Source: Pontibacter sp. G13 (GTDB lineage Bacteria; Bacteroidota; Bacteroidia; J057). From it: a stretch of DNA of 64,000 nt. The translations under genes were made by a program, and so were the position numbers. Position 1 is the stretch's first letter; each line of letters opens with the position of its first letter. The notes below the pieces were generated by a model, which had not been told where the DNA came from, made no database searches, and worked only from the letters and a program-made list of their open reading frames with translations. Shown here one piece after another: positions 12,788 to 60,155 of this stretch. The DNA lies in NCBI RefSeq assembly GCF_031851795.1, contig NZ_CP134696.1, positions 1,295,576 to 1,359,575 on the forward strand, in the 5' to 3' direction.

Positions 12788-12889
12788 ATAGTGCTGTCTG
12801 CTCGCTGCGAATAATGGATACTATCGGCCCTCGAAGCCCTCTTTTGGTTGCTTCGAGGGCCGTTTTTGTTAGGTGCCTGATTCATGAAG

Positions 12890-13110: not shown

Positions 13111-13114
13111 CTCA

Positions 13115-21865: not shown

Positions 21866-21866
21866 C

Positions 21867-22664
21867 TTAGGTCGCAGAAACCAGTTCCTCCTTGGGACCT
21901 TTGAGCCAACGGCGGCCCGTGATGGTCAAGCCTCCACGTTTTTTGGCCATGCGAATCGTCAGAATGATAGAGAGCGCAATCGTAGCAACTCGGAAAACAT
22001 TGCCCATGGTGCTACCAATAGCCGTGTTGTCGATCGTAAAGATGGCCCAGAAGAAATTCATCAGGAGGTGCACGAAAATTGGAACCCACAGGTTGTTGTC
22101 CCACTCGATGTAGAGCCAGGCAAACCAGCAAGCGCCCAGGGAGGTGACTCCGAGTACCCCAGCAGCACTGAGCGGATCATGAGCCTGATAGAGGTGGCCG
22201 ATAGAAAACACCACCGCATTGACCATCGCAGCAGGAAAAAAGCCCCAACGTCCGTAGCGGAATAGCAGGCCGAATAGAAATCCGCGGTAGAAAATCTCCT
22301 CCTCGATTCCCGCTCGTAGGGCTCGCTGACAAAAGGACTCCAAGGTGTATTCTGTATTGAACGTTCCAAGAAGTGCGTATCCGATGGCCATCGGGAGCGT
22401 GAAGATAAATGCCCAAAGGAAGCCTTTGCCGAGCCCCTTGAAGAGGCCGAGATGCTCTAGGACATTGCCCCGCAACATGAGGTAAATGACGGTTCCCAAG
22501 ATGGCAAACCAAAACAGATTGTAGCTGCTGATAGCGGTATATGGCCAATAGGGAAATTCAGGGATGCTCGCTCCGAAGAGGCCGAGAATGTCTCCAAGAA
22601 AGTACCGGACGAGGAAAGTCAGGATGACCACTGTGGAGACGAGTATGCTAGAAGGCTGTTTCAT
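21867..22664 (-). CDS. CPBP-family intramembrane metalloprotease (CAAX protease/Abi-like)
   Basis: EEEIFYRGFLF...FFPAAMVNAVVFSIGHLYQ are the conserved EExxxR and FxxxH motifs of CPBP proteases. Multiple TM helices. Confidence 0.8.
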   Translation of the reverse strand: MKQPSSILVSTVVILTFLVRYFLGDILGLFGASIPEFPYWPYTAISSYNLFWFAILGTVIYLMLRGNVLEHLGLFKGLGKGFLWAFIFTLPMAIGYALLGTFNTEYTLESFCQRALRAGIEEEIFYRGFLFGLLFRYGRWGFFPAAMVNAVVFSIGHLYQAHDPLSAAGVLGVTSLGACWFAWLYIEWDNNLWVPIFVHLLMNFFWAIFTIDNTAIGSTMGNVFRVATIALSIILTIRMAKKRGGLTITGRRWLKGPKEELVSAT

Positions 22665-25099: not shown

Positions 25100-28000
25100 T
25101 TATGATGAATGAGATCCATTGGAACGGCTTTCGAGGGCCGCCTGGATTCCTTTGAGACCTTCGGAGAATTGGCCCATTTCTCTGACCAATTGACCCAAAC
25201 GGTCTCCAGTGAGTTCTTTTTGTTTGCGGAACATCTCACAGATATCGGCCCAACGGGCTTCGTCTCCCTCAGAGGCATAGTCATTCATCTGCTTGAATTT
25301 AAGCAAATTGGCTTCTGCTCCCGCGGTCAGCGTCTGTGATTCCTGCTCGTAATGAGCGAGAACGAGTTTCCGCACTTCCTCGTCGTTCATGATCGGCATG
25401 ACTTTTTCTGCCAACCGGTTCATGTTTCGATACGATCCTTGAAGCTGGAATCGAGGCTCTACCCGATATTCATCCTGTTGGGACGCGGATTCAATATAAG
25501 CCTGATTTACATTCAAGATGGCATCGCGAACGACAAAGAGCTTTTGGAGGACGTTGACAGACTCCGAAATCTCCTCGGAAGTGAGATTGGATTCAAAGTC
25601 AAGTCCCTCACGTTGACCAGTTTCGGCAATTTTGACCAGCGTCAGGATATCCTGATGGGGCTTGGTCGTCAATCGGCTGAGAATCGGATTACTCGTCAAT
25701 GCATTCTCAATATAGCTCAATTTGAAGACATCCGCTTGATCGCCGATGATATCCCCCAAATTATAGGTATCCGCACGGTTGGCCAACATGTCTGGAATTT
25801 GGAATTTCTCCCCCGATTCCGTGTATGGGTTACCCGCCATGACGACCGCGACCTTTTTGCCACGGAGGTCATAGGTCCGTGTTTTGCCTTTGTACACCCC
25901 CTCGATTTTGCGCTGGGCATCACAGAGCGAGATGAACTTCTGTAGAAATTCCGGATGACAGTGCTGAATATCATCGAGATACAGCATGATATTGTCTCCC
26001 ATCTCCAAGGCCAGATTGAGCTTTGCCAATTCCTCTCTAGCGGCCGCATTGGGTGCCTCGGAAGGATCAAGTGAGGTGACTTGGTGCCCGATGGCCGGGC
26101 CATTCACCTTCATGAAGATGAGGCCCAAACGGTTGGCGACATATTCCATGAGCGTGGTCTTGCCGTATCCTGGAGGCGAAATCAGCAACAGCATGCCCAT
26201 ACGGTCAGTCCGGGTCTGCTCTCCGACGGTACCAATCTGCTTGGCGAGATTGTCCCCAATGATCGGCAAGTAGAGCTTGTCGATCAGCTGATTTCGGACA
26301 AAAGCACTCATCACACGAGGCTTGAACTCATCGAGTCGCAGGGTCTCGCGAAATTCATCCGTCAGGGTTTGCTTCCGCTCCCGAAAAGTTTGATACATCG
26401 GCAGCGTCTCCCGCTCAAATTTTCCTACACGCTCCATCAGATCGTGATAATCCAATAGGTAGGTTCCAGCCTTGATACAGCCGTGTTCGCCGACCATTCC
26501 AGTGATTTCTCGGAAAAGCTCCACATGTTTGACGCGCTTGCCATCAAAATCATCGAGCAAGACCAACAGTGCGGCTTCCGATTCGAAGAGCCGATGATGA
26601 TCCCCCAATTTCACCGATTCCGCCCAGGCACGCAACCCTTGTCGGACGAGCGTAAATTGAGCTTCTGGATGCGCCTGGAGGAGCTCCAGCGAATGACGGA
26701 ATTTGGTGGCTAGCCGTTGTTTCTTGAGGTGAGCTGCGAATTGCTCATACACTTCCGCCGCCTCTCCGCTGATGCCAAATGGCAGTTCCAGTGCCAATGT
26801 CCGGAAGAGATATTCAGAAGCCTCCGGGATAATCGACTCCGGGAAAAGCCCCATCAATGGGTCTTGCCCCAACATATCCACCGCAATGGATTCGATCAAT
26901 CCATCGAACTCATGAGTATCGGGGAACATCTGGACGATGAGTCCCGCAGTTTGGATTTGGCGCTCCCAGAAAGTCCGTTGATGCTCCTCCACGAATCTTT
27001 CCCAATAGAATTTGGCACATGTTCTCACCTCGGGAGAATATCTCAGTCCTCCCACTCGGCTCCTGATATCGACAAGATGACGGACCAATTTGGCTGCGTC
27101 CAAATCATGTACCCCCTTGATGTAGCCTTCTTCGAATCGAGTGGCCGAGAACTCTTTGACCAATTGGAGCCATTCCTCCTCGTGGTCATTCTCTGGCCAA
27201 GTCAAATCTGCCTGAAGCATCTGATAGGCCAAAAATTCCGCACGGTACACCTCGAGGTTTTCGGAAGGCAGACTCATGTTCCAGACAGTCTGTGTCTGGC
27301 GGAATTCGGCGTCGGTGATTTCTTCGAAGAAATTGGTGCCCGACAGGTGGAAATACATCCCATCCCCTCTAGGTACAATGCTCAATTCCAAGGGCTGGAC
27401 ATTCACCGAAAAATGATGACGCCCAAATTGAAGGACATTTTCCCCACCTACGAAGAGTTCCTTTCGGTCTTTCAACTGGCGGACAGCATCTTCCCGCAAA
27501 GTCTTCAAGCGGCTCTGGATATCGCCAGCCTTGACGGAGTCTTCCAACTCTTCCAGCGACTCGATGATATCGCGGACCTTATTCACCATCAAATCCGAAG
27601 CGAAATAGGCATTGATTTCCTGCGCTTCCTCGAATTTGGCGAGGCGGGTGCCGATCCCTTTGAGGATTCGCTCGGCTGCACGTTGGAGATTGTCGGTGCG
27701 TCTATTTCGGGCTTCCACCAATGAAAGCCTGCGGCTTTCGAAAGCTTGGTACAATTCTTCGCGCTTCTCACCGATCTGCTGCAGGAAATGGTCGTATTCA
27801 GCGAATTTCCCTTCCAATTCTTCCACCTGAACCATAAGCTTGGTGAGATACTCCTCGCATTTCTGGGGAGAATCACACAAGTCCAGGTAATTGATGATCG
27901 ATTGACCCAACAGACGAATCTGGGCACCAAATTCCGCTTCGGCCTCCATCCCCTGCATTTCCTGTCTACGCTGCTTGAGGGCTCCTCTCAATCCATTGAG

Positions 28001-30076
28001 ACGCGCATAGATGGTGGAAATGTGGTCAATGATCTGGGTGGTCTGGGTGGCATCGGCAATCTTGAGGTTGCTGACGATATCGATCAGCAATTCAAGCTCC
28101 TTCCCTACCCCATCCATTCGCTCCTGAAGCTCGTCGGCCTCTGTCACTTTGGCCACGGACTCGATGGAAGCTATCAACTCATCTACCCGAACGCCATAGG
28201 GCTCCAACGCCTTGGGGTCCACCAAGAATTGAACGCACTGTTCGGAGATTTTGGCACTTCTCTCCTCGACAGACTGATCGAGCTGTTCGACCAAATCGAG
28301 GTCTACATATCGAAGTTCGCGCAAGGAGATGATCTCGCCCCGCAAAGTGCGCAGATCTGCTAGATACTGGACAAATTGATCTACTTGTTGGGGTTTGTAT
28401 CTCCTGATCCGGTCTAGGGTATCCTGAACGCGCTCGGATACCGCATCCATCTCAGCCTTGGTATTGGCACGAATGCGGGTCACCTTCTCAAATTCATCAA
28501 TCGCCGAATTGGCTGCATCGCGAATTTGAGCCAAAGGTTCGGACAGATTCTGCGCTTCCTGATGATTGATCCAGTAGTAACTATCCAGAATATCGCCAGA
28601 TTTGCGCACCAGATCCACGTACAGCCCGTGATAGCTATCCTCTTTGTTGAGAAGCGTCAACAGTTCGTTGCACTCTCCTATACCCCGCACCAAATCCTTG
28701 TTTCCGACCTTGTATAGCCAAGTATCGGAATGTTCGGAGCTTCCTAGCTGGTTTTCCGTGTAGGGCGTCTGCCAGACTTGTACCAGGTGATGTCTGCCGG
28801 GCGTATCCTCCGAGCGGAAGTAGCTCAGTTCGCCATTGGGAAAAATGGAATAACCATTACAGACGATCGGAGTGGCTACCCGTTGCTCCACGAGATTGTA
28901 GTTGAGCAACACATAGGTGCCAGATGCCGGATCGGTGAAGATGTAGAGAAAATCCTCGCCATTAGGAGCCGCAATCCGCTTTTCGAAGTGCAATCCTGTG
29001 CCCTCCAAGGTCTCGAAAAGCTGAAATTCTCCGGTCTGGAGGTAATAGCCGTTGGCAAAAATCACCCCCTGATCGTCGGGCAACAGCACACAGCTATGCT
29101 CAATGGAGTCCACACGACGCACCTCCTGAGCTTTTTCATTGAACAGAAAATACCGGGAATCCTTTTCCTGATAGGGTTTAATCCTTAGTGCGATGAGGTT
29201 ACCGAGGTCTGCGAATGCGTATTCTGCGTCATCCAGCGTCTGCGCAGGATCATCCACCGGTTCGGCGTAGATTCCGTGTCCAGAATCGGTATTGTCCTCC
29301 ACCTTGATGGTCAAGTCGCCTCCTACGGTTTCGACGAACACTCGGTCCTGAATACTCACATGCGGGTGGCTCCCACGCCGATGCATATCCCTATTGGAAC
29401 GTTGCCATTGGAACTGATGCTGAGCAGGAAAGACCAATTCATGATCAAAGCGATTGCCTAGATACATCAGGCCCTCATCTTTGATGGCCCATTTGAAGGT
29501 CTTGACATCGTTGTGGCTTTTGCCCACCTGAAACACCATGAACAAATGGGGGCCGATCACTGCGAATCGCGAGAAAACTGTGTGCTTGTAGTATTTGTAG
29601 AGGTTGGTGAAATCCTCCTGAAAGCGCTCGTCTGAAAGTAGATCTAAATTTTTGGCATGGAAGCTATGATCAGCGGATTCGAAGCGGTAGGCTGCGAATA
29701 CATCCGAAAGCTTGACTTCTGTCCGTAGGCCCATGTGGACATTGTAGCCAAACAGGAAATGGTGTCCCAATGCCACCATATCCCTGGAAATGCAATTGTG
29801 CTCGGTGGTAATCCGGTCATTGGCGATGAGGGTCGTGTCCACCGCCCCGAAGATGACCTTCCGCTGCTGGTTGAGTGCATCCATCCTTCCGCGAAGATCC
29901 TGGGCTTGGGTCTTGAGTCGCTGGAGGATGATTTCATATGTGCCTCCTTCGAGGGAGGTAGGTTGTGTCGACATAGTATGGGAGTTTGCCAAGTCACGAT
30001 AACGAACCGAAACAGACAACATGCGGTGAAAATCCCGCCCATACCCAACGGGGGGCAGGGCGGTTGCTGGTATCAA
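25100..30076 (-). CDS. Giant (1,658 aa) multidomain protein with a C-terminal MoxR-like AAA+ ATPase module. The N-terminal region is beta-rich and the middle is a long coiled-coil/alpha-helical region
   Basis: Walker A LLLISPPGYGKTT. Walker B IMLYLDDIQHCHP. Sensor-1 KVAVVMAGNPYTE (the xxxNP pattern typical of the MoxR/AAA-5 clade). Residues ~500-900 are heptad-rich and E/L/R/Q-biased. One uninterrupted ORF ends 28 nt from the upstream lipoprotein gene. Confidence 0.75.
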   Translation of the reverse strand: MIPATALPPVGYGRDFHRMLSVSVRYRDLANSHTMSTQPTSLEGGTYEIILQRLKTQAQDLRGRMDALNQQRKVIFGAVDTTLIANDRITTEHNCISRDMVALGHHFLFGYNVHMGLRTEVKLSDVFAAYRFESADHSFHAKNLDLLSDERFQEDFTNLYKYYKHTVFSRFAVIGPHLFMVFQVGKSHNDVKTFKWAIKDEGLMYLGNRFDHELVFPAQHQFQWQRSNRDMHRRGSHPHVSIQDRVFVETVGGDLTIKVEDNTDSGHGIYAEPVDDPAQTLDDAEYAFADLGNLIALRIKPYQEKDSRYFLFNEKAQEVRRVDSIEHSCVLLPDDQGVIFANGYYLQTGEFQLFETLEGTGLHFEKRIAAPNGEDFLYIFTDPASGTYVLLNYNLVEQRVATPIVCNGYSIFPNGELSYFRSEDTPGRHHLVQVWQTPYTENQLGSSEHSDTWLYKVGNKDLVRGIGECNELLTLLNKEDSYHGLYVDLVRKSGDILDSYYWINHQEAQNLSEPLAQIRDAANSAIDEFEKVTRIRANTKAEMDAVSERVQDTLDRIRRYKPQQVDQFVQYLADLRTLRGEIISLRELRYVDLDLVEQLDQSVEERSAKISEQCVQFLVDPKALEPYGVRVDELIASIESVAKVTEADELQERMDGVGKELELLIDIVSNLKIADATQTTQIIDHISTIYARLNGLRGALKQRRQEMQGMEAEAEFGAQIRLLGQSIINYLDLCDSPQKCEEYLTKLMVQVEELEGKFAEYDHFLQQIGEKREELYQAFESRRLSLVEARNRRTDNLQRAAERILKGIGTRLAKFEEAQEINAYFASDLMVNKVRDIIESLEELEDSVKAGDIQSRLKTLREDAVRQLKDRKELFVGGENVLQFGRHHFSVNVQPLELSIVPRGDGMYFHLSGTNFFEEITDAEFRQTQTVWNMSLPSENLEVYRAEFLAYQMLQADLTWPENDHEEEWLQLVKEFSATRFEEGYIKGVHDLDAAKLVRHLVDIRSRVGGLRYSPEVRTCAKFYWERFVEEHQRTFWERQIQTAGLIVQMFPDTHEFDGLIESIAVDMLGQDPLMGLFPESIIPEASEYLFRTLALELPFGISGEAAEVYEQFAAHLKKQRLATKFRHSLELLQAHPEAQFTLVRQGLRAWAESVKLGDHHRLFESEAALLVLLDDFDGKRVKHVELFREITGMVGEHGCIKAGTYLLDYHDLMERVGKFERETLPMYQTFRERKQTLTDEFRETLRLDEFKPRVMSAFVRNQLIDKLYLPIIGDNLAKQIGTVGEQTRTDRMGMLLLISPPGYGKTTLMEYVANRLGLIFMKVNGPAIGHQVTSLDPSEAPNAAAREELAKLNLALEMGDNIMLYLDDIQHCHPEFLQKFISLCDAQRKIEGVYKGKTRTYDLRGKKVAVVMAGNPYTESGEKFQIPDMLANRADTYNLGDIIGDQADVFKLSYIENALTSNPILSRLTTKPHQDILTLVKIAETGQREGLDFESNLTSEEISESVNVLQKLFVVRDAILNVNQAYIESASQQDEYRVEPRFQLQGSYRNMNRLAEKVMPIMNDEEVRKLVLAHYEQESQTLTAGAEANLLKFKQMNDYASEGDEARWADICEMFRKQKELTGDRLGQLVREMGQFSEGLKGIQAALESRSNGSHSS

Positions 30077-30103
30077 CAGCTGGGTTACTCTTGGGGGAAT
30101 CCC

Positions 30104-30784
30104 CTAGGATTGGGAAGTATCTTGATTCATCCGGGCCCGGATTGCGGAACGGAGCGCTTCGAGGTCTTTGGCTTTCATCAAAGCAGGGTGCTTGACCAGT
30201 TCCAAGGTCTCGCTTCCATACCAGATGACGACATTCCCCAAAATAGGCGACCAATACTTGTGGTGGCCGGGCTTGGGATCTCCCAAGTGGGCGAATCCGA
30301 GAATCCGATAGATTTCCATCGAATCGGTATCCACTGGAAGCGTCATCTTGCGGTCGATCTGAACCTCGTAGGGATCAGCCAACACCATGAATGCCGTGTC
30401 TGGCGTGACCTTGAATTGGTAGTCAATGGCTTCTTGACGATTTTCGAAGTCTGTGAGGTCCAGCTTCAATTCCTGGACATAGTACTCAGTGCCACCGGAC
30501 TGATCTCGGTAGACATTGTAGACTTCCGTCATCCTCACTCGGCCATCCGAAAGGGTGTCCATCATGACCCACCCTTTTTCAGAACGACCGGCTCCATCAG
30601 CTCTGACCTCCAGTAGATGAACGGGTTTCTGCGACTCCACCCAATTGACGATTTCAGCCATGTGGCTATCCATCGGGGATTTTGGATGGGTGAGTTGGGG
30701 CGGAAGACGATGGGATGTATGGGTACAAGCCACGAGGGTCGTCAGCCATATCATCATGATTCCAAGTTCGATCTTCCTGTTCAT
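30104..30784 (-). CDS. Lipoprotein of unknown function
   Basis: Lipobox TTLVAC at the N-terminus after a hydrophobic segment. 226 aa. Positioned between the flotillin gene and the giant ATPase gene on the same strand. Confidence 0.55.
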   Translation of the reverse strand: MNRKIELGIMMIWLTTLVACTHTSHRLPPQLTHPKSPMDSHMAEIVNWVESQKPVHLLEVRADGAGRSEKGWVMMDTLSDGRVRMTEVYNVYRDQSGGTEYYVQELKLDLTDFENRQEAIDYQFKVTPDTAFMVLADPYEVQIDRKMTLPVDTDSMEIYRILGFAHLGDPKPGHHKYWSPILGNVVIWYGSETLELVKHPALMKAKDLEALRSAIRARMNQDTSQS

Positions 30785-30908
30785 CTAGCGGTCATTTGAG
30801 CTTTTCAGCCACAATATACGCATCCATTCTGGGCCAAGCGCATTTCGTTCCCGATTGGATCAAGGGGATTCCCCATCCGTCCATACGGACAGGGAATCGT
30901 AATTCTTC

Positions 30909-33092
30909 CTAGTTCAAGCCAATGCTCTCAGCCTTTTGATGGTCGATACCCATCGTTTTGGCGGTATTGAGCAGATTGGTCAATAGATTGAGCTGACTAG
31001 AATCCTCAGTCTGATTCATCATCTTCATGATGAGTGCAGAGATGGTCAAGTTCTTGACATCTGCGCTATCGAGTCCGAATTGTCCGACAAACCCCTTGAG
31101 CGCTTTGCCCAATCCGAGGTTGCCATTGGATTCACCATTGCCGAGGAGAGACTGCTTGAGGTCCACCAAGTGCTGGCTGTCCATGATTCGGTCCACATAC
31201 TTGCTGTTGGAGACAGCGTTGGTGATACGGTCGAAGAATTCTTGCTCTCCACCCACGATATCGATGTTGGCAGCTTTGAGGGCTTCGGCCAAGACTTGCG
31301 CTTGTGCCGCGGCGATCTCGCGCTGGATTTCGATCCGTGCCAATTCGATGGCTGTTTCCTTCTCCAATCGAAGCTTGAACTCTTCGTGCTCCTTGCCTAC
31401 GCCATCCAATTTCTGCATGGCTTCTGCCTTGGCGGCTACGCCCTTGGCATCCGCAATGCCTCTTTCCTCGATGACTTTGGCTTCGGCGACTCCCATCTTT
31501 TCGGTGGCGGCAGCCTTGGCTTCGAGCACTTGTGCTTCTGCAAGCCCTTTCTCGACATTCAATTTGGCATCCACCATACCGATCTTCTCGTTGGCATCCG
31601 CTTGAGCGTCTCCCTTGAGTTCGATTCCTTTGGCTTCGGCAATTGCCTGCTGCTCGAGGACATTGGCTTCAGCCTGACCTTCCTTCTCACGCGCTGAGGC
31701 TTTGGCTTCCAAGACACGTGCTTCAGCCAAACCGATGGCTGCATGCTCTTCTGCTGTAGCGTCCGCCATGATCTTCTTGGCTTCGGCTTCCTTGTCGATG
31801 GACTCGCGAAGGGCGTTGGCCTGAATCACACGGGTCTGGGCCTCGAGTTGAGAAGCTTCCTTCTCTGCTTCGGCACCTTTGATGCGCTCGACCAATTGCT
31901 CTTGTGCACGCTTTTCAGCTTCGAGGATGGCCACTTGCTTGAGACGCTCAGCCTCTGCAATCGCCTCTGTATCCTTGATTCGCTCCTGCTCCTCGACCAC
32001 TTCGCGCTCTACCGCAACGCGATCCCGGATCACATCCTGAATCTGCTTGCGCTCTTCTTCGAGTGCTTTTTCCTTTTCGATGTTGGCCAATGAGACAATG
32101 CGATCACGCTCTACAGCTTCTAGATCACGCTCACGGACCACTTTCTCCTGCTCTACCGCTTCGGTGCGCTCCTTATTCTTTTTGGCGACGATGATGTCGC
32201 GCATCTTGTTCTCCTCCTCGATCATGATTTGACGCTCTCGCTCAATGCGAGCAGCATCTGCCTTGAGGCGTTCTTCCTCCTGAACCTTTTGGGTTTCGGC
32301 AGTTTCTCGGGCTTTGATAGAGGCAATTTCACGCTTCTGGACCTCGGACTTCTCAGCCAGCTGCTTTTCCAATTCGAGGAATGCTTCCGCTTTTTCGGTG
32401 TCTTGACGCTTGATCTCCTTCTCACGTTCGCGCTGAACCTTGTTGGCAGCGGTGATCTGATCAGCAGTCAGCTCGCGAATTTTCTTGATACCAACGGCAT
32501 CCAAGATGTTGTTTTCGTCGAGGTATTCAACCGGGGTCTGCTCCAAGTAATCAATCGCTGCATCATCGAGGGAATACCCATTCAGATCTTTACCGATGAC
32601 TTGGATAATCTCCTTCTTGAGTTCGTCCCGAGAGTTGTAGAGGTCGATGAAGTCAAATCGTTTACCGACCGACTTGAGGGCCTCTGAGAATTTGGCTTCA
32701 AACAAGACGCGAAGCTGATCCGGGTCCGAAGCACGGGTACACCCAATGGTGGATGCCACGCGGAGAATGTCATTTTCTTCGGGGCTCACCCTTACGAAGA
32801 AGGCCACCTTGATGTCTGCACGCAAATTGTCCTTACAGATCAAGCCATCTTTTCCTTCACGGGTAATGACGACTTGCTTGAGGGAAATATCCATCATTTC
32901 CAACTTGTGGAACAATGGTACAACCCACATGCTTTTGCCTGTGCTGACTCTAGGCTTTCCTTGGCCAGTCTTGACCAATGCCTTTCCTTGGCTTACTTTT
33001 TTCAGAAACAGGGAGATTGCGAATAGGTAGCCTACGCCTATCACAACCAAGGCTCCGAGTAATACATACCCGACCATGACGAATGTATCCAT
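30909..33092 (-). CDS. Flotillin-like SPFH (band-7) domain protein with a long C-terminal E/A/K-rich coiled coil (YqiK-like)
   Basis: N-terminal TM helix. SPFH domain (VVPLFHKLEMMDISLKQVVITREGKDGLICKDNLRADIKVAFFVRV). This is followed by ~400 aa of EA-rich heptad repeats (AEAKVIEERGIADAKGV...). 727 aa. Confidence 0.85.
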   Translation of the reverse strand: MDTFVMVGYVLLGALVVIGVGYLFAISLFLKKVSQGKALVKTGQGKPRVSTGKSMWVVPLFHKLEMMDISLKQVVITREGKDGLICKDNLRADIKVAFFVRVSPEENDILRVASTIGCTRASDPDQLRVLFEAKFSEALKSVGKRFDFIDLYNSRDELKKEIIQVIGKDLNGYSLDDAAIDYLEQTPVEYLDENNILDAVGIKKIRELTADQITAANKVQREREKEIKRQDTEKAEAFLELEKQLAEKSEVQKREIASIKARETAETQKVQEEERLKADAARIERERQIMIEEENKMRDIIVAKKNKERTEAVEQEKVVRERDLEAVERDRIVSLANIEKEKALEEERKQIQDVIRDRVAVEREVVEEQERIKDTEAIAEAERLKQVAILEAEKRAQEQLVERIKGAEAEKEASQLEAQTRVIQANALRESIDKEAEAKKIMADATAEEHAAIGLAEARVLEAKASAREKEGQAEANVLEQQAIAEAKGIELKGDAQADANEKIGMVDAKLNVEKGLAEAQVLEAKAAATEKMGVAEAKVIEERGIADAKGVAAKAEAMQKLDGVGKEHEEFKLRLEKETAIELARIEIQREIAAAQAQVLAEALKAANIDIVGGEQEFFDRITNAVSNSKYVDRIMDSQHLVDLKQSLLGNGESNGNLGLGKALKGFVGQFGLDSADVKNLTISALIMKMMNQTEDSSQLNLLTNLLNTAKTMGIDHQKAESIGLN

Positions 33093-33177
33093 GGGTGGTT
33101 TTCTTAGTTAGTTTGCTGGAATAAATAACGAATCGAGATGTGCTGTAGGATTGTGTTTCAATGGTGGCGCCGCAGGG

Positions 33178-33846
33178 TCAGACCTCAAACTTGGTGATCA
33201 GAAATTGCTCTGAACCGGGCTGATACTCGACCAGCAGGGCCTTGTCGCCTTTGCGGAGGGAATCCGAATCTTTGGAATAGACATGGAGCAGGAAAAATTC
33301 TCCCTCCACTTCCAATTCCGCCTGTCCGGGGCTGTCAGGATCCACCTGAACCGTGATTTCGCAGATTTTCCCCACCAGTTCCCGCTTTGTGAGTGATCTG
33401 GAATCCAGTTTCTTGTGGAGATTCCCCAATGGCCATGTGGCAAATTTGGTGATGAACAATGATCCGACAAAGTTAGCCGTAAGCCATCCCGCCTGTGCCC
33501 ATCCCGTAGGGCCAATCAGTTGATGGATCGCTATGGCAATTCCCCACAAACTCATGGAGAGAATGCTCAAAAACAGCATGAAGGGTACTTTGCCGATATT
33601 GAAAAAGGTCAAGACCTCCATCCATACAGGCGCTCCCGCACCTATTTCCACATCGGTGTCTGCATCCACATCGACGTCTACGTCGACATCCACGTCCAAA
33701 TCGGCATCGATATCCAGATCGAAATCCAGCATATCCATGTCAATGGCTCCGAGGATCACGGTCACCCAATACATCAGCATCAGGCCCAAAAATCCCGTGA
33801 AGAACACGATGGAAGGAGAGATGATCAAATCCAGAAAATCGCGCAT
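33178..33846 (-). CDS. NfeD-like / YqiJ-like inner-membrane protein (flotillin-associated OB-fold protein)
   Basis: Two N-terminal TM helices. An acidic (DV/DI) low-complexity stretch. A C-terminal soluble domain that looks OB-fold-like (ELVGKICEITVQVDPDSPGQAELEVEGEFFLLHVYS). It lies immediately upstream of the flotillin gene, as in yqiJ-yqiK. Confidence 0.65.
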   Translation of the reverse strand: MRDFLDLIISPSIVFFTGFLGLMLMYWVTVILGAIDMDMLDFDLDIDADLDVDVDVDVDVDADTDVEIGAGAPVWMEVLTFFNIGKVPFMLFLSILSMSLWGIAIAIHQLIGPTGWAQAGWLTANFVGSLFITKFATWPLGNLHKKLDSRSLTKRELVGKICEITVQVDPDSPGQAELEVEGEFFLLHVYSKDSDSLRKGDKALLVEYQPGSEQFLITKFEV

Positions 33847-41110: not shown

Positions 41111-41182
41111 TCCGATCGTTCGCGATCTCTTTTCAAAAGATGTGGAATACGTGTATTCCACATCTTTTTTTTTGAAGCTGTT

Positions 41183-41430
41183 TCAGGCTCTCCATTTCGG
41201 CTGTAAAGCACCATTTCCAGAACCTCAGTTCGCTATTTTTTCGGACATAGCCCCACTATGACCTGCAAAAATAGCAGCCTGAGAACCCGGATCTGACGCC
41301 TTTCGCTTCAAAATGGATTCCCTGAAACAGCTTCTTTGGGGATGGGCGGCCAAACCCTCCATTTCGGCTGCAATGCGCTATTTCCAGAACCTCAGTTCGC
41401 TATTTTTTCGGACATAGCCCGCTGTCAGTC
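41183..41430. repeat. Intergenic composite repeat: two ~65-bp direct repeats plus a perfect 14-bp inverted repeat
   Basis: Direct repeats CTCCATTTCGGCTG.AA.GC.C.ATTTCCAGAACCTCAGTTCGCTATTTTTTCGGACATAGCCC at ~41200-41265 and ~41359-41424. Inverted repeat GAAGCTGTTTCAGG (41184-41197) / CCTGAAACAGCTTC (~41320-41333). Confidence 0.6.
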
Positions 41431-44989: not shown

Positions 44990-45200
44990 GATGTGCGGCT
45001 GGCAGGTGCGGCGTAAGGGCTCCGGAAAGGCCGACGTCAGGAGGAGTCGCGGATCTGGGGGCGGCGATATCTCGCCCCCAGATCCGCGACCGAGGGGTCT
45101 CCCCGAGCTTGTAGGAGCCCGACCCCGCGGCTCAATTGCCAAGCGCCATCCCCATTGCCCAGCTCGCGGGGATACGCCCAAATCCAAAAAACCGCCTCCC
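44990..45200. repeat. Copy (partial) of the dispersed repeat element family
   Basis: It starts with GATGTGCGGCTGGCAGGTGCGGCGTAAGG, as at 12890. It contains the inverted pair GATCTGGGGGCGG...CCCCCAGATC. Confidence 0.55.
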
Positions 45201-45225
45201 CAAAGCTGGGAAGACGGTTTTTTTT
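45185..45225 (-). terminator. Bidirectional rho-independent terminator downstream of the ThuA-family giant gene
   Basis: CCGCCTCCCC (45192-45201) / GGGAAGACGG (45208-45217) form a 10-bp stem with 2 G-U wobbles. It is flanked by an A-run (45185-45190) and a T-run (45218-45225). Confidence 0.5.
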
Positions 45226-52956: not shown

Positions 52957-53709
52957 ATGGGAAAAAACACACTGACCCGTATCTGGGAACTCATCGGACT
53001 GCGGTACAAATCCCACCCTTGGCATGGTGTACAGATCGGCGAAGAAGCGCCCGACCTCGTCACCAGCTTCATCGAAGTGGTACCCTCCGACACCGTGAAG
53101 TACGAAGTGGACAAACGCACCGGTTACCTCAAGGTGGACAGACCCCAGAAATTCTCCAACATCGTACCTGCGCTTTACGGATTCCTCCCTCAGACCTACT
53201 GTATGGATCAAGTGGCGGAATACTGCATGGAAAAAACCGGCAAAACGGGAATCGTCGGTGATGGAGACCCCTTGGATATCTGTGTATTGACGGAGCGAAA
53301 CATTACCCACGGCGACCTGCTAGTACCCGCAGTACCGATCGGTGGATTTCGCATGATCGACGGTGGAGAGGCTGATGACAAGATCATCGCCATCCTCAAA
53401 GGTGACCAAGTGTACGAAGACTGGAAGGACATCACCGATTGCCCTGCAGCCTTGGTCGAGCGCCTCAAACACTACTTCCTGACTTACAAACAGATGCCCG
53501 GAAGCGATGAAGACGAAAGCCGAATCATCGAAATCACCGACATCTACGGTCGCGAAGAAGCCCTCGAAGTGATCCGCCGAAGCATGGTGGATTACCGCAA
53601 GAAATTCGGGAAACTCGAAAACCGCCTTTCCTTGGCTACCTTGGAAATGATCAACTTCGGCCAGAGCTGGCAGGAAGCCATGCGCGAAGCCGACGGTTTC
53701 GGTTCCTAA
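52957..53709 (+). CDS. ppa: Inorganic pyrophosphatase (family I)
   Basis: Family I PPase blocks are present: IEVVPSDTVKYEVDKRTGYLKVDR...DGDPLDICVL... Confidence 0.85.
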   Translation: MGKNTLTRIWELIGLRYKSHPWHGVQIGEEAPDLVTSFIEVVPSDTVKYEVDKRTGYLKVDRPQKFSNIVPALYGFLPQTYCMDQVAEYCMEKTGKTGIVGDGDPLDICVLTERNITHGDLLVPAVPIGGFRMIDGGEADDKIIAILKGDQVYEDWKDITDCPAALVERLKHYFLTYKQMPGSDEDESRIIEITDIYGREEALEVIRRSMVDYRKKFGKLENRLSLATLEMINFGQSWQEAMREADGFGS

Positions 53710-53759
53710 TTCCCTCTTCCCATCCTACAAACCCTCGCCCCACAGTTTGCTGGAGCAGG

Positions 53760-54045
53760 GAAGTGCATTCGGGATTGACTGTCATAGTCGATCCCGAATT
53801 TTTTTTCAGGGGCTTTGGGCGTGCCCCCGCGGGCGAGACATCCGATCACCTCTTGGCCCATACATCGCGGGGTCGCGTGCTGCATGGGTTCGCTGCGCTC
53901 CGTCCTCCGCTCAAGGCTCCGGACCGCTCCCGAAGGAGCGCCATTCCGCCCGCTCACGCCACACTCACCAGCCGCACATTTCATGCGGTAAGGCATGTGG
54001 GTCAAGGGTTAAAACCCTTGCTTGTGATGTGTCGCGCCTACAGCG
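53760..54045. repeat. Left terminal element of the tandem-repeat locus (dispersed-repeat family, inverted relative to the right end)
   Basis: Ends ...CAAGGGTTAAAACCCTTGCTTGTGATGTGTCGCGCCTACAGCGCTT. This is the reverse complement of GCAAGCGCTGTAGGCGCGACACATCACAGACAAGGGTTTCCAACCCTTG at 57335-57385. Confidence 0.6.
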
Positions 54046-57000
54046 CTTAGAGGGATTTCAAGCGCTATGCCTTTGGTTCCATCATGTCATTGCCGGCAGC
54101 AAATGGTCTCGGCATTTGCCGCCGATCGGGAATCTCCTGAGCGCGAAGCATCCTGCCATGCGCAAAAAATGCCTCATCCCGCAAAATTTCGACGCGATGG
54201 CGCCTGTGGGCAGGGAAATTTATGCGGGATCTCACGCCTCGTGCATGCTGGGGCTAGTTTTTTGCCAAGCGTGGAAAATCATGCCAAGCCCACTCCACAT
54301 GCCCCCTCGGCGGTTGAGCTTGGATGCCATGCAAGCTCAGGGAGATTCCACCTCTGCCCCCGATGCGCGGGCCTTTGCTGATGGCAGGCTGGAATGACGG
54401 TTCTATTTTTCATTTGCTCAGCCCTGCGGGCGCCCAACCGCAAACCCCGTTGCAGGGACGTGGGATCCCTGATAAATCCCGCTTCGCACCGATGCCAACG
54501 CGGGGATTTTCAGGGATGAGGTGAAAGGGGGGAAGGCTGGATCTAGCAGGAGCCGGATTACCCACGGGCCTTTTCACTGGCCGAAATCCGCCTCAGTCAG
54601 GAAAAATGATGGTTGAACAACTATACAAGCACTATGCCTTTGGTTCCATCATGTCATTGCCGGCAGCAAATGGTCTCGGCATTTGCCGCCGATCGGGAAT
54701 CTCCTGAGCGCGGAGCCTTTTGCCATGCGCAAAAAATGCCTCATCCCGCAAAATTCCGACGCGATGGCGCCTGTGGGCAGGGAAATTTATGCGGGATCTC
54801 ACGCCTCGCGCATGCTGGGGCTGGTCTTTTGCCAAGCGCGAGCATGCATCCACGCCACATCCCCAAACCCCACACGTCATCCTCGACGGCGATAGCCAAG
54901 GCCCCAGCGATGGCGCCGATCGGGGATCTCCCTAGCGCGAAGCATCCTGCCATGCGAAAAATAATGCCTCATCCCGCAAAATTTCGACGCGATGGCGCCT
55001 GTGGGCTGGGAAATTTATGCGGGATCTCACGCCTCGTGCATGCTGGGGCTGGTTTTTTGCCAAGCGTGGAAAATCATGCCAAGCCCACTCCACATGCCCC
55101 CTCGGCGGTTGAGCTTGGATGCCATGCAAGCTCAGGGAGATTCCACCTCTGCCCCCAACGCGCGGGCCTGTGCTGATGGCAGGCTGGAATGACGGTTCTA
55201 TTTTTCATTTGCTCAGCCCTGCGGGCGCCCAACCGCAAACCCCGTTGCAGGGACGTGGGATCCCTGATAAATCCCGCTTCGCACTGATGCCAACGCGGGG
55301 ATTTTCAGGGATGAGGTGAAAGGGGGGAAGGCTGGATCTAGCAGGAGCCGGATTACCCACGGCCCTTTTCACTGCCCGAAATCCGCCTCAGTCAAAGCTT
55401 CGCTGAACACGCTGCCCCAAATCCCCAAACCCCACACGTCATCCTCGACGGCGATTGCCAAGGCCCCAGCGATGGCGCCGATCGGGGATCTGCCGAGCGC
55501 GAAGCCTTTTGCCATGCGCAAATAATGCCTCATCCCGCAAAATTTCGACGCGATGGCGCCTGTGGGCAGGAAAATTTATACGGGATCTCACGCCTCGTGC
55601 ATGCTGGGGCTGGTTTTTTGCCAAGCGTGGAAAATCATGCCAAGCCCACTCCACATGCCCCCTCGGCGGTTGAGCTTGGATGCCATTCAAGCTCAGGGAG
55701 ATTCCACCTCTGCCCCCGACGCGCGGACCTTTGCTTATGGCAGGCTGGAATGACGGTTCTATTTTTCATTTGCTCAGCCCTGCGGGCGCCCAACCGCAAA
55801 CCCCGTTGCAGGGACGTGGGATCCCTGATAAATCCCGCTTCGCACCGATGCCAACGCGGGGATTTTCAGGGATGAGGTGAAAAGGGGGAAGGCTGGACTA
55901 GCAGGAGCCGGATTATCCACGGCCCTTTTCACTGGCAGAAATCCGCCTCAGTCAGGAAAAATGATGGTTGAACAACTATACAAGCGCTATGCCTTTGGTT
56001 CCATCATGTCATTTCCGGCAGCAAATGGTCTCGGCATTTGCCGCCGATCGGGAATCTCCTGAGCGCGAAGCATCCTGCCAAGCGAAAAATAATGCCTCAT
56101 CCCGCAAAATTTCGACGCGATGGCACCTGTGGGCAGGGAAATTTATACGGGATCTCACGCCTCGTGCATGCTGGGGCTGGTTTTTTGCCAAGCGCGAGCA
56201 TGCATCCACGCCACATCCCCAAACCCCTCACGTCATCCTCGACGGCGATTGCCAAGGCCCCAGCGATGGCGCCGATCGGGGATCTCCCTAGCGCGAAGCA
56301 TCCTGCCATGCGCAAATAATGCCTCATCCCGCAAAATTTCGACGCGATGGCGCCTGAGGGCTGGGAAATTTATGCGGGATCTCAAGCCTCGTGCATGCTG
56401 GGGCTGGTTTTGGTCATGCGCGAAACAAACTGCCAAGCCCACTCCACATCCCCCCTTGGCGGTTGAGCTTGGATGCCATTCAAGCTCAGGGAGATTCCAC
56501 CTCTGCCCCCGATGCGCGGGCCTGTGCTGATGGCAGGCTGGAATGACGGTTCTATTTTTCATTTGCTCAGCCCTGCGGGCGCCCAACCGCAAACCCCGTT
56601 GCAGGGACGTGGGATCCCTGATAAATCCCGCTTCGCACCGATGCCAACGCGGGGATTTTCAGGGATGAGGTGAAAAGGGGGAAGGCTGGATCTAGCAGGA
56701 GCCGGATTACCCGCGGGCCAGCGCAATTGCCGAAATCCGCCTCAGTTAGGAAAAATGATGGTTGAACAACTATACAAGCACTATGCCTTTGGTTCCATCA
56801 TGTCATTTCCGGCAGCAAATGGTCTCGGCATTTGCCGCCGATCGGGGATCTCCCGAGCGCGAAGCATCCTGCCAAGCGCAAAAAATGCCTCATCCCGCAA
56901 AATTTCGACGCGATGGCGCCTGTGGGCAGGGAAATTTATGCGGGATCTCAAGCCTCGTGCATGCCGAGGCTGGTTTTTTGCCAAGCGCGAGCATGCATCC

Positions 57001-57320
57001 ACGCCACATCCCCCCTCGGCGATGGAGCTTGGATGCCATGCAAGCTCAGGGAGATTCCACCTCTGCCCCCGATGCGCGGGCCTTTGCTGATGGCAGGCTG
57101 GAATGACGGTTCTATTTTTCATTTGCTCAGCCCTGCGGGCGCCCAACCGCAAACCCCGTTGCAGGGACGTGGGATCCCTGATAAATCCCGCTTCGCACCG
57201 ATGCCAACGCGGGGATTTTCAGGGATGAGGTGAAAAGGGGGAAGGCTGGACTAGCAAGAGCCGGATTACCCGCGGCCCTTTTCACTGCCCGAAATCCGCC
57301 TCAGTCAGGAAAAATGATGG
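54045..57320. repeat. ~3.3-kb non-coding mosaic tandem-repeat array (5-6 units of ~550-800 bp built from modules of ~110, ~130, ~100 and ~330 bp)
   Basis: Module A (ATGATGGTTGAACAACTATACAAGC.CTATGCC...GATCGGGAATCTCCTGAGCGC) recurs at ~54607, 55964, 56755 and (truncated) 57303. Module B (GAAGCATCCTGCCATGCGCAAAAAATGCCTCATCCCGCAAAATTTCGACGCGATGGCGCCTGTGGGCAGGGAAATTTATGCGGG...GGTTTTTTGCCAAGCG) recurs at least 8 times. Module C1 ends in TCAGGGATGAGGTGAAA at ~54513, 55303, 55866, 56667 and 57226. All ORFs in the region are short and lie on both strands. Confidence 0.8.
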
Positions 57321-57620
57321 TTGAACAACTATGCAAGCGCTGTAGGCGCGACACATCACAGACAAGGGTTTCCAACCCTTGATCTGCTTGAAGCGTAGGG
57401 CTGGCTTGTGGCGGCGATAGGGATGGGAAGGGCGAGCCGACAGGCGAGGTCCGAGGCCTCCGGTGATCTCTGGCGGCGCATTTGACTCTGGTACGATCAG
57501 CTTTCCGAGAAAGAATCCGAGGACGGGAGCGCCAGCGTACCCCTGGATCAGCCCGCCCGGCGACTCGGATGCCCCGCGCACACCTCCCACTCCACACGCC
57601 GGGATCGCCCAAATGATGAT
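57320..57620. repeat. Right terminal element of the tandem-repeat locus (dispersed-repeat family)
   Basis: Contains GGCGAGGTCCGAGGC and ATCCGAGGACGGGAGCGCCAGCGTACCCCTGGATCAGCCCGCCCGGCGACTC, shared with 12890-13110. Its reverse complement matches 21400-21600. Confidence 0.6.
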
Positions 57621-57773: not shown

Positions 57774-60155
57774 ATGCACGCACGACTCCTTACTGTACTC
57801 TACCTAGCCGTGATCGCTGGCCTATCGCCACTCATGGCTCAAGATTTTCAGACCTCCCTACGTGGTAAGGTTCAGGAAGCCCAGATTTTGGCTCCTATCA
57901 CACAAGCAACCCTTACTTTGACCCAAGCCGGCAACGAGGCATCCACCCATACGGTGATGACTGACGAAACTGGCGGGTATAGATTTGACGATATTCCGTC
58001 TGGGAGATACACGCTCCAAGTATCGGCTACGGGGTATGAATCCGTGGAGGAACCGGGTTTGGTTCTCCATGCCGGAAAGCAACGGGTGCTGGACATCGAG
58101 TTGCCTTCGGCCAGTTTTGCCACGGAGGAAGTTCTGCTCATCGCCACCAATCCCCGGACATTGAATCGGGTATCCACCCGCACGATCACTGTAGAAGAAA
58201 CCAAGCGATTTGCGGCGGTCTATTTCGATCCGGCGCGGATGGCCACTTCCTTCCCCGGAGTGGTCGGGACAGACGATCAGGCCAACAACCTCGTCATTCG
58301 CGGCAACTCCCCCAATGGTATGCGCTGGCGGCTGGAAGGCATGGATATCGTCAATCCCAACCACCTCACCAATGCAGGCACCCAGACTGACCGCCTCACC
58401 CAGAATGGCGGTGGAACCATCCTGGTGAGCTCGCAAATGCTTGATCAATCCACCTTCTCGACAGGTGCATTCTCGGCTGAATACGGCAATGCGCTCTCGG
58501 GCTTGATGGACATGCAGTTTCGCAATGGCAACAACGAGCGCTATGAGTTCACGGGACAGATCGGGCTGATCGGAATCGACCTCTCTGCGGAAGGCCCTAT
58601 TTCCAAAGCATCGGGAAGCTCTTTCTTGGCAAATTATCGGTACTCCACCGTCGGACTGATCACCTCGCTGGGGGTGGACTTCGGCGATGAAAACATCCAG
58701 TACCAGGACCTCTCTTTCAAGGTGCATGTACCTACCGAACGAGCGGGCGTGTTCTCCATCTGGGCAATGGGCGGATTGAGTTCCAATGTATTCACCAGTC
58801 CCCGTCCCGACACCTTGACCGACCAAAAAGAGCAATTTGACATCGACTTCGCCTCCAACATGGGCGCAATCGGCGTCAATCACCAATTGGCCATAGGCTC
58901 AAGAACCCTCTGGAAATCAGGCCTGGCAGCCTCGGGTATCCAGTCTGAGCGTTCAGGTTGGTTGCTTCAAGAGTCCGCTCCGAGTAACCGTATCCAATAC
59001 GACGAACTAATCAATTCACGGATCTCCTTCCGGACGGCCATCGCCCATCAACTCAATGACAAATCCACCTTTGAGGGAGGGGTTTTCCTGAGTCAGATTT
59101 CCAACACGACTCGAATCGAACAAGCTTCCCTTACGGAGCCTGAACTTATTCAGGTATTGGCAGACCACAGCGGATCAGATTTATTGGTAGAGCCTTATGT
59201 GAAGGGTCAATTCCCTGTTGGGCAGCGTATCCAGCTTCATGTGGGCCTCCACGGAATGTGGCTTCAGGACAATGGGAGCTTCTCGCTGGAACCACGATTC
59301 GCAGCAGATGTCCGGGTAGCTCCTCAGCACAAGTTGAGATTGGCCTATGGGCTTCACAGCCAGATGCAAATGCCTGCGGTCTACTACACCACCTTTGAAG
59401 ATCAGGATGGAGCGCTTGTTTCCCCGAATGCCGACCTAGGCTTCACCCGGGCGCACCATGTGGTGTTGGGGTACAATTTCCAACCGACTCCGGGATTTGT
59501 GGTGAAAGTAGAGCCGTACTTCCAGCGGATGTTCAATGTGCCTGTTTCCACAAACCCATTCAGCACCTTCTCCACGCTCAACCTGCTGGAAGGCTATGTG
59601 ACCGACACGCTCGAGAATTCAGGGATCGGCACCAATTACGGGATTGACCTGAGTGTCGAGCAATGGCTGACGGACACCTACTACTACCTCTTGAGTGGTT
59701 CTTGGTATCAAGCCAATTTCCGAGCTGCAGATGGTGTGGTACGGGATGCGCGCTACAATGGTCGATTTAGCTTGGCGGCATCTGGTGGAGCGGAATTTGA
59801 TCGTATGACCCAGAAGGGCAAGAACAAGATTTTTGGCGTGAATGCACGCATACTCTATCGAGGTGGGTTCATGGCGGCCCCCGTAGACCTGGATGCTAGC
59901 CGCGAAATGGCCCGCACCATTTACGACGAATCCAATGGATTTACGGAGCAATTGCCGGACTATGCGCGGGTGGATCTTCGGATTATCTTCAAACGCAACA
60001 AGGCGAAGTTTACCCGGACCTTCAGCTTCGATATCCAGAATGTCCTCAATACCCAAAACATCGCTTACAAATACTACGATGTAGTGTTGGACGAAGAGGT
60101 CACCAAATACCAACTGGGCCTGATTCCACTCCTCAGCTATCGACTTGAATTTTAG
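57774..60155 (+). CDS. TonB-dependent outer-membrane receptor with N-terminal carboxypeptidase-regulatory-like domain
   Basis: Signal peptide MHARLLTVLYLAVIAGLSPLMAQ. CarboxypepD_reg-like block GKVQEAQ...GGYRFDDIPSGRYTLQVSATGYE. Plug domain and C-terminal beta-barrel ending in an aromatic residue (...SYRLEF). The ORF-track start is 57717. Confidence 0.8.
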   Translation: MHARLLTVLYLAVIAGLSPLMAQDFQTSLRGKVQEAQILAPITQATLTLTQAGNEASTHTVMTDETGGYRFDDIPSGRYTLQVSATGYESVEEPGLVLHAGKQRVLDIELPSASFATEEVLLIATNPRTLNRVSTRTITVEETKRFAAVYFDPARMATSFPGVVGTDDQANNLVIRGNSPNGMRWRLEGMDIVNPNHLTNAGTQTDRLTQNGGGTILVSSQMLDQSTFSTGAFSAEYGNALSGLMDMQFRNGNNERYEFTGQIGLIGIDLSAEGPISKASGSSFLANYRYSTVGLITSLGVDFGDENIQYQDLSFKVHVPTERAGVFSIWAMGGLSSNVFTSPRPDTLTDQKEQFDIDFASNMGAIGVNHQLAIGSRTLWKSGLAASGIQSERSGWLLQESAPSNRIQYDELINSRISFRTAIAHQLNDKSTFEGGVFLSQISNTTRIEQASLTEPELIQVLADHSGSDLLVEPYVKGQFPVGQRIQLHVGLHGMWLQDNGSFSLEPRFAADVRVAPQHKLRLAYGLHSQMQMPAVYYTTFEDQDGALVSPNADLGFTRAHHVVLGYNFQPTPGFVVKVEPYFQRMFNVPVSTNPFSTFSTLNLLEGYVTDTLENSGIGTNYGIDLSVEQWLTDTYYYLLSGSWYQANFRAADGVVRDARYNGRFSLAASGGAEFDRMTQKGKNKIFGVNARILYRGGFMAAPVDLDASREMARTIYDESNGFTEQLPDYARVDLRIIFKRNKAKFTRTFSFDIQNVLNTQNIAYKYYDVVLDEEVTKYQLGLIPLLSYRLEF

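Follow-up and report, generated by a model that had tools for sequence, protein, structure and literature searches.

Bacterial chromosomes seldom contain stretches of several kilobases without a gene. Among intergenic repeats that have been described, the closest to the locus reported here are the bacterial interspersed mosaic elements (BIMEs) and other clusters of repetitive extragenic palindromes (REPs) in Escherichia coli and the pseudomonads (PMC2817692, PMC3333891, PMC3733652). These clusters are extragenic and reside at gene 3′ ends or terminators, are assembled combinatorially from a few hairpin-forming modules, are species-specific, occupy multiple loci, and have no product; BIMEs can also act as terminators or as structures at messenger RNA ends. 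In a 64-kb stretch of the Pontibacter sp. G13 chromosome (hereafter the window), we find a locus that resembles them in each of these respects, namely a direct-repeat array of 3.27 kb (positions 54061-57334) that fills a gene-free gap of approximately 4 kb between the end of an inorganic pyrophosphatase gene (53709) and the ATG of a TonB-dependent receptor gene (57774). We conclude, with a probability of roughly 55%, that this locus is a lineage-specific, non-coding mosaic repeat cluster that has no product of its own and is composed of private intergenic modules, which we call X, AL1 (for Acido-Lenti-1), A, B, C1, C1-end, and C2. The array is most likely selfish or neutral repeat DNA that has grown by recombination, and we regard the locus as an exceptionally large form of the mosaic clusters of intergenic repeats that have been described in other bacteria. 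Statements about the genome as a whole are based on the window and on the protein records of Pontibacter sp. G13.

An initial annotation of this stretch had proposed that the gap holds a mosaic tandem array built from a few modules, and this view is borne out by the detailed anatomy. There are seven copies of B, five of C1, four of A, and three of C2, and repeat searches and alignments place the overall identity between copies at 88-99%. The repeat search recovered five families of direct repeats, 109-300 nt long, whose starts are spaced 795, 561, 793, and 560 nt apart, and anchor motifs combined with alignments yielded a parse of positions 54049-57334 without gaps. From left to right, the modules read A1-B1-C1, tail+A2-B2-C2-B3-C1-C2′-B4-C1, tail+A3-B5-C2-B6-C1, and tail+A4-B7-C1(hybrid start)-tail. 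A simpler parse is that seven B modules of 148 nt are separated by spacers that are either short (79 nt, C2) or long (413-419 nt), wherein a long spacer consists of C1 followed by tail+A, or of C1 followed by C2′. Tandem Repeats Finder (TRF), which had been suggested as a check, did not report the array because the longest period it considers is 500, but the repeat search establishes that the array is real. We also considered a higher-order repeat of 1,355 nt and rejected it, since copies i and i+2 are no more similar than neighbors; this period recurs solely because tail+A and C2′ have similar lengths.

All modules of the array lie in direct orientation on the plus strand. Module B measures 147-149 nt (88-96% identity), and thus exceeds the size of approximately 130 bp first given for it. 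It is a long imperfect palindrome with approximately 33 pairs between GCGCAAAAAATGCCTCATCCCGCAAAATTTC and GAAATTTATGCGGGAT...GGGGCTNGTTTTTTGC, and it carries the hairpin CCCGCAAAATTT...AAATTTATGCGGG that the initial annotation had pointed out. The 3′ part of B includes a terminator-like hairpin and T-run that were called in all seven copies, always on the plus strand. These copies are B1 (54124-54271), B2 (54691-54838), B3 (54918-55066), B4 (55480-55627), B5 (56046-56194), B6 (56274-56420), in which the T-run is degraded, and B7 (56840-56987), whose terminator stem is a perfect 7 bp. Module C1 (approximately 328 nt, 90-98% identity) is found at 54272-54599, 55067-55394, 55628-55954, 56421-56748, and 56988-57334; the fifth copy has a C2/C1 hybrid start, includes the final tail, and ends the array exactly at a unit junction. 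The tail+A module (91 nt, 98-99% identity) is present as A2 (54600-54690), A3 (55955-56045), and A4 (56749-56839), and A1 follows a linker (together 54049-54123), with A proper beginning at CAAGCGCT (54059). Finally, C2 (79-85 nt, 97.5% identity) forms the short spacers at 54839-54917 (copy 1) and 56195-56273 (copy 3), and its variant C2′ (55395-55479) stands in for tail+A.

The junctions between these modules suggest how the array grew. The 8-nt sequence CAAGCGCT begins module A and also the inverted AL1 element at the array's right edge, and the only places in the window that match the pattern CAAGCRCTRT are the starts of the four A modules and of two inverted AL1 copies (6 matches versus 0.34 expected). 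This placement indicates that the array spans one CAAGCGCT to the next, includes whole units only, and ends exactly at the junction. We infer that growth would have started from a single A-B-C1-tail core of approximately 570 nt, located between head-to-head X-AL1 composites 3′ of the pyrophosphatase terminator and bracketed on both sides by CAAGCGCT. Illegitimate recombination between these two 8-nt repeats (microhomology) would have duplicated the core into an initial tandem pair. The 148-nt B modules and the C modules would then have undergone gene conversion and unequal homologous crossing-over, giving rise to the seven B copies, the two spacer classes (79 nt and approximately 415 nt), and the hybrid modules. 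The C2/C1 hybrid start at 56988, the replacement of tail+A by C2′, and the CCACATCCCC motif common to C1 and C2 starts are the scars expected from unequal crossing-over. Hybrid modules and the shared 8-nt junction likewise point toward the recombination-generated expansion that had been offered earlier as one explanation, and the array is probably a hot spot for copy-number change.

None of ten open reading frames (ORFs) in the array matches Pfam, and a 133-aa ORF across B7 and C1 gave no phmmer match among 1.84 billion representatives. Two of the four unit periods (793 and 560 nt) are not multiples of three and break the reading frame, and a 66-aa ORF, the sole one present in all C1 copies, exhibits three synonymous versus four non-synonymous differences. 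In agreement with the initial annotation, there is no gene in the gap, and no coding frame with support across the units was found. Pfam, phmmer, and word-index searches with translations of the array likewise revealed no homolog except the sister array described below. We consider it highly improbable that the region is a protein-coding repeat or an assembly artefact in the form of a mis-expanded repeat. Repeats that exceed short-read length are prone to mis-assembly, and the Prokaryotic Genome Annotation Pipeline (PGAP) annotated the sister array as a 261-aa protein. However, the copies diverge from one another at 2-12% of positions and the order of modules varies, a pattern that collapse or expansion does not yield, and the G13 assembly is a single contig of 7.54 Mb. 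Three other classes of repeat locus were evaluated and rejected. The array is not a CRISPR array, as had been noted at the outset, given that its repeat measures 148 nt, only two repeated kinds of ‘spacers’ occur, and neither Rfam nor Pfam reveals a CRISPR or cas match. Integron attC sites were dismissed because the arms of B end in GCAAAAAA and TTTTTTGC, inspection by eye found no RYYYAAC or GTTRRRY core sites, and the ‘cassettes’ are two sequences repeated. An iteron or replication-origin reading is ruled out by the anatomy.

The co-oriented hairpins raise another alternative, which is that the array is a tandem set of small RNA (sRNA) genes. In such a set, each B would supply the common 3′ scaffold, made of a long hairpin and an intrinsic terminator, the 5′ region would be either A or C2, and a promoter would lie in the tail or in the C1 core; the nearest model is the multi-copy NsiR1 array of Nostoc. 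The terminator-like hairpins, all seven of them co-oriented and six with their T-run intact, are consistent with this proposal, as is the perfected stem of B7. So is the near invariance of the C1 core (161 nt; 54381-54541 in copy 1), which has only two variable columns among the five copies, versus 23 of 149 in adjacent B copies (Fisher P ~3e-6) and 14 of 58 in C1-end. This core contains an AT-rich island, TTCTATTTTTCATTTG, that is one mismatch from the Bacteroidota −7 promoter motif TAnnTTTG. AL1 was also originally put forward as an RNA with covariation (PMC2864571).

Nevertheless, we judge an sRNA-gene array to be unlikely. Among exact consensus matches, no sigma-70-like site was found in the array, and TAnnTTTG occurs zero times in 54049-57334 versus 26 times in the window, where the motif occurs upstream of several genes elsewhere. 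Folding energies of the array sequences are ordinary (z from −1.7 to +0.65), and AL1 is the sole Rfam family detected at E-value limits of 1-5. Compensatory (two-sided) changes occur in none of the 52 predicted pairs of the B alignment, and 14 pairs are broken in some copy, several by uncompensated substitutions, although this is weak evidence because the B copies are young. Terminator-like sites, with copies counted as one, number 8 versus 4.9 ± 2.4 expected from shuffles, and so are not enriched. The earlier suggestion that each unit bears a terminator-like or sRNA-like feature stands for the first part, which applies to all seven B copies; for the second, the terminator-like ends are the only point in favor, and there is no promoter motif, compensatory change, or unusual folding energy. 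With no signal of promoter, structure, conservation, or database homology, the array is best read as repeat DNA whose influence, if any, is passive insulation. The seven co-oriented hairpins would shield the receptor gene from the transcript of the pyrophosphatase gene, which is the only probable effect of the array on the cell.

The array is enclosed by structured elements in the order terminator, X (reverse), AL1, array, AL1 (reverse), X. The AL1 element, a double hairpin, matches the Rfam family RF01687 (gathering score 37). The left copy (54002-54047, plus strand; 27.0 bits by cmscan) points its 3′ end toward the array, and the right copy (57336-57382, minus strand; 27.6 bits) is inverted relative to it, such that the two arms of 46-47 nt, which as an inverted repeat span 54002-54048 and 57335-57382, are 92-95% complementary. 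A third copy in the window (21825-21870, minus strand) scores 38.8 bits, which is above the gathering score, and overlaps the stop codon of a CAAX-protease gene (Pfam Rce1-like). The array-flanking copies are 87-89% identical to this one (89% for the left copy). All cmscan alignments cover model positions 1-46 in full, including both stems (8-bp hairpin, 12-nt linker, 5-bp hairpin), and the stems co-vary relative to seed sequences, for example CCUUGGGUUGAAACCCAAGG in NC_005027.

The second flanking element, X, is a GC-rich dispersed sequence of approximately 230 nt, for which an nhmmer profile detects five copies in the window. Two of these flank the array, on the left at 53813-53989 (minus strand; E 7.7e-37, with an internal deletion of approximately 60 nt) and on the right at 57384-57614 (plus strand; E 1.8e-61). 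The others are a solitary copy at 12881-13116 (plus strand, 3′ of a hairpin at 12828-12872), a solitary-type copy at 21394-21629 (minus strand, abutting a terminator at 21346-21392), and a divergent copy at 44991-45184 (plus strand, abutting a terminator at 45185-45213). All five are intergenic, and each adjoins a terminator-like or other hairpin. In three of the five, the 3′ end of X (CGCCCAAA) lies 1-4 nt from the T-run of the neighboring terminator (53809/53813, 21392/21394, and 45184/45185); the copy at 12881 begins approximately 10 nt past its hairpin, and the right-flank copy precedes a weaker AT-rich hairpin. X may insert preferentially at terminator T-tracts.

Conserved helices of X include a closing GGCG/CGCC and a CCCGGCG/CGCCGGG stem with compensatory variants CTCGGCG/CGCCGAG and CCCCGCG/CGCGGGG. 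The central domain is variable, being deleted in one copy and replaced in the divergent copy by a near-perfect 45-nt palindrome (45046-45090, GAGTCGCGGATCTGGGGGCGGCGATATCTCGCCCCCAGATCCGCGAC), which suggests that it is a stem-loop of free length. Taken together, the compensatory helix variants and variable central domain indicate a structural constraint at the level of RNA or single-stranded DNA. We also asked whether X might be a group II intron remnant, given its GUGCG-like 5′ end and the reported proximity of AL1 to such introns, but no intron family matched.

These details revise the flanks as first described, namely as inverted copies of one element of approximately 300 bp that also occurs alone at three other intergenic sites. 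The inverted arrangement holds, but each flank is a composite of X and AL1 that is unequal between the two sides and separable elsewhere; the three additional sites are confirmed for X, and AL1 is present at only one of them. A comparison with miniature inverted-repeat transposable elements (MITEs) is not supported for the flanks as it was first stated. The 5′ (GTGCGGCTGG) and 3′ (CGCCCAAA) ends of X are not inverted repeats of each other, and no target-site duplications or direct repeats were seen by eye around the five X copies or the whole block, so MITE status is not established. It is similarly very unlikely that the entire 3.8-kb block (53813-57614) is one non-autonomous mobile element, whether foldback, MITE-like, or a composite transposon, with X plus AL1 as terminal inverted repeats of approximately 280 nt. 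Such an element would account for the inverted X-AL1 composites at both ends, for the dispersal of X (five copies in 64 kb), and for the fact that the block is missing from relatives. However, no direct repeat lies beyond the two ends, and BLASTN detects no similarity between the X arms beyond AL1 despite their homology; a 60-nt indel also separates the X arms, whereas the AL1 arms are 92% identical. Moreover, X is also found alone, AL1 is also found without X, and no second copy of the block is known.

Members of the module family are found at other loci as well. A mini-array at 21637-21810 (minus strand), detected by BLAST and TRF, consists of four tandem units of 34 or 44 nt that are homologs of the C1 3′ end (GCCGAAATCCGGCTCAG), with loops that alternate between the two variants GGTACACTT and AGCGCACTY. 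On the minus strand, the region at 21.4-21.9 kb reads in the order CAAX-protease stop codon, AL1, four C1-end-like units, X, and terminator. The C1-end loop of C1 copy 4 in the main array is AGCGCAATT, a variant otherwise present in this mini-array, which suggests exchange between loci, or ectopic conversion.

A second array is visible only through a protein record. The translation of 53747-54394 matched a single database protein, a 261-aa ‘hypothetical protein’ (P0121) from the same genome that is listed in NCBI/UniRef and which when used as a query found itself as the sole match. When read as modules, this record has the order C2, B start, AL1, A/C2 hybrid, B start, AL1, A/C2, full B, C2, B start, AL1, A/C2, and B. 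AL1 recurs here in direct orientation, and its junction with A is the same as at the left edge of the main array. This module order identifies P0121 as the conceptual translation of a non-coding AL1/A/C2/B tandem array, and hence as an annotation artefact of PGAP; it is the only visible evidence of a second array locus in the G13 genome. AL1 is therefore present in three copies within the window and in at least three more in this record.

A tandem context for AL1 extends to its original seed alignment, where 42 of the 87 copies, and 38 of the 56 on NZ_ABCK contigs, have a further copy no more than 1 kb away (PMC2864571, supplement). The clusters include 13 with two to five copies on the same strand, with periods of 69-490 nt and spacings of 69-743 nt, and two of mixed orientation (PMC2864571, supplement). 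One group of four copies alternates in orientation every 100-140 nt (NZ_ABCK01000016.1, 15912-16336) in a BIME-like layout, other clusters on this set of contigs are strictly direct, and in the flanked alignment entire units of approximately 192-200 nt recur (PMC2864571, supplement). The paper that introduced the motif proposed it as an RNA with covariation and a candidate trans-acting sRNA of Acidobacteria and Lentisphaerae, mentioned that it is sometimes near group II introns, and did not discuss tandem organization (PMC2864571). A 2026 preprint places AL1 beside large unannotated stretches in Tannerella, and a paper on KLIKK proteases does not mention repeats. As judged by the second G13 array and the tandem seed clusters, AL1 is evidently a member of a repeat system, which the initial annotation had missed. 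Given this setting of tandem, mosaic DNA, AL1 is at least as likely to function at the level of DNA or repeats as to be expressed as a trans-acting RNA.

Two broader proposals follow from these observations. The first is that AL1 marks a cross-phylum class of intergenic mosaic tandem arrays rather than a free-standing sRNA, that these arrays are made or maintained by a dedicated activity that recognizes hairpins or are transcribed as multi-unit RNAs, and that the C1 core is under selection. Such arrays may extend across Lentisphaerae, Bacteroidota, and marine metagenome contigs, with Acidobacteria copies mostly dispersed, and the C1 core may serve as a promoter, an RNA, or a protein-binding platform. 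We regard this proposal as tentative and unlikely. The second, which seems to us quite unlikely, is that AL1 is the recognition site of a hairpin-specific enzyme acting on single-stranded DNA, such as a rolling-circle nickase or a Y1 HUH transposase resembling REP-associated tyrosine transposases (RAYTs) or those associated with terminal inverted repeats (TIRYTs), which would disperse the modules and make tandem copies directly, such that the array would be the product of an enzyme and not an accident of recombination. The varied partners of the AL1 double hairpin (after X, after a stop codon, and after a B start) and the regular same-strand seed clusters together with the one of alternating orientation speak for this proposal, and the patchy occurrence of AL1 across several phyla is compatible with mobility. 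Y1 transposases are credited with REP arrays and with the inverted repeats on either side of TIRYT genes, among them those of Acidobacteria (PMC3733652). Yet Pfam revealed no transposase, integrase, reverse transcriptase, or recombinase among the approximately 40 larger ORFs of the window, and the internal units of the array lack AL1 entirely. In addition, the GTAG of inverted AL1 resides in the loop of hairpin 2 rather than outside the stem, and is not conserved across the seed.

The lineage-specific nature of the array shows in its distribution. In four relatives, where DUF1015 and/or aminotransferase genes are retained upstream, the pyrophosphatase gene is followed at a distance of 17-340 nt by a different gene, and the array is missing from this site. 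No AL1 was found in the contigs of relatives (57 kb), and the X profile found nothing in the sequence of relatives that it covered, which was one contig, perhaps two (L001, perhaps L002). An exact B pattern and a two-block X pattern each gave zero matches in 185,579 species genomes, a set from which G13 itself is apparently absent. In metagenomes, the C1 pattern had no matches, and nine matches to the two-block X pattern were rejected as chance, since none showed similarity beyond the pattern. Plasmids and viral contigs yielded nothing. On the evidence of these searches, the array is specific to the lineage of Pontibacter sp. G13. The next-best homologs of the pyrophosphatase belong to Bacteroidota metagenome-assembled genomes with at most 86% identity. 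As a separate observation, the top 120 homologs of the pyrophosphatase include no named Pontibacter, and the genome measures 7.5 Mb; the genus assignment may be loose.

Several features weigh against our conclusion that the array is neutral or selfish repeat DNA grown from one core. First, whole-unit duplication alone does not predict the invariant C1 core, for which selection could be responsible. B and C1-end are present at other loci too and may import variation by ectopic conversion, with the core homogenized only inside the array; it is also possible that the core is under selection or was inserted recently. Second, the T-run is kept in six of seven B copies, and two one-sided changes perfect the stem of B7. 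Third, the X flanks are far more diverged than the AL1 flanks, such that the ‘single ancestral bracket’ may instead be two insertions. Finally, neutrality is something that we infer from 64 kb of a 7.5-Mb genome, in one strain and from sequence alone.

The surroundings of the locus are those of an ordinary chromosome, and the window includes genes for polysaccharide, amino-acid, and transport functions. The pyrophosphatase gene on the left (52957-53709, plus strand; PF00719) encodes a protein with 100% identity to a database protein of that name from Pontibacter sp. G13 and is followed by an intrinsic terminator (53767-53809, plus strand) with a 15-bp stem and T8. The receptor gene on the right (57774-60155, plus strand) carries the Pfam domains CarboxypepD_reg and TonB_dep_Rec_b-barrel. 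Elsewhere in the window, four co-directional genes (25100-33846, minus strand) encode a 1,658-aa DUF3686/DUF7902/AAA ATPase followed by proteins of 226, 727, and 222 aa without a Pfam domain, and this group matches no PADLOC defence model. A short tandem repeat of 12/18 nt with approximately three to five copies (33647-33728) is situated within the ORF at 33178-33846 (minus strand). Two 64-nt direct repeats with 94% identity (41190-41253 and 41357-41420) lie 3′ of a palindromic terminator (41135-41168), in a stretch of approximately 730 nt without ORFs of at least 150 aa, and have no relation to the X/AL1 family.

The array shows private, structured intergenic modules growing into a satellite-like array. 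AL1 has been an orphan Rfam family and a candidate sRNA since 2010, and both here and in its seed it behaves as a module of tandem arrays, which makes it a testable question whether AL1 is an RNA, a repeat, or a transposase substrate. The sister array, deposited as a 261-aa hypothetical protein, serves as a flag for annotation artefacts of this kind. If the array is neutral, it can still be of use for typing, as a locus of variable copy number, and as a caution to assemblers.

How the locus compares with other known systems depends on which of its features is considered. NsiR1 of Nostoc (Rfam RF02399) is a multi-copy tandem sRNA array in which each unit has a defined promoter and yields an RNA of approximately 60 nt. 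Our array is likewise made of tandem units on one strand that each end in a hairpin resembling an intrinsic terminator, but it has no promoter motif and its units are 228-795 nt. As with MITEs and foldback elements, the sequences are dispersed, non-coding, and intergenic, with inverted copies that bracket the block; unlike these elements, X has no terminal inverted repeats, target-site duplications were not seen, and the block is far larger. Staphylococcus aureus repeat (STAR) units are short and GC-rich, with spacers of approximately 40 nt between them. Staphylococcal STAR elements and further species-specific direct repeats of intergenic regions (PMC3532100, PMC3372372) are also interspersed, vary in unit number, and are restricted to one lineage, whereas the G13 array is a mosaic of 100-330-nt modules with inverted structured flanks.

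With respect to RF01687, its 46-nt motif of two hairpins lies at both edges of the array and appears again in the sister array. The family was catalogued from Acidobacteria and Lentisphaerae, whereas here it resides in a Bacteroidota genome, is inverted at the array ends with internal units that lack it, and has CUACA rather than the usual UUC(G/A) in the loop of hairpin 2. Relative to REPs, the GTAG/CGTC tag is not in its canonical place, since the GTAG of inverted AL1 extends over the loop and stem of hairpin 2 and is missing from most seed sequences, and no RAYT gene lies within the 64-kb window. The REPs of a BIME alternate in orientation, whereas the modules of the array are all direct repeats and only the flanking AL1 pair is inverted. 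Furthermore, the modules measure 46-330 nt (AL1 itself being a 46-nt double hairpin) versus 20-40 nt for those of BIMEs, and the array, at 3.3 kb, is an order of magnitude above BIME size.

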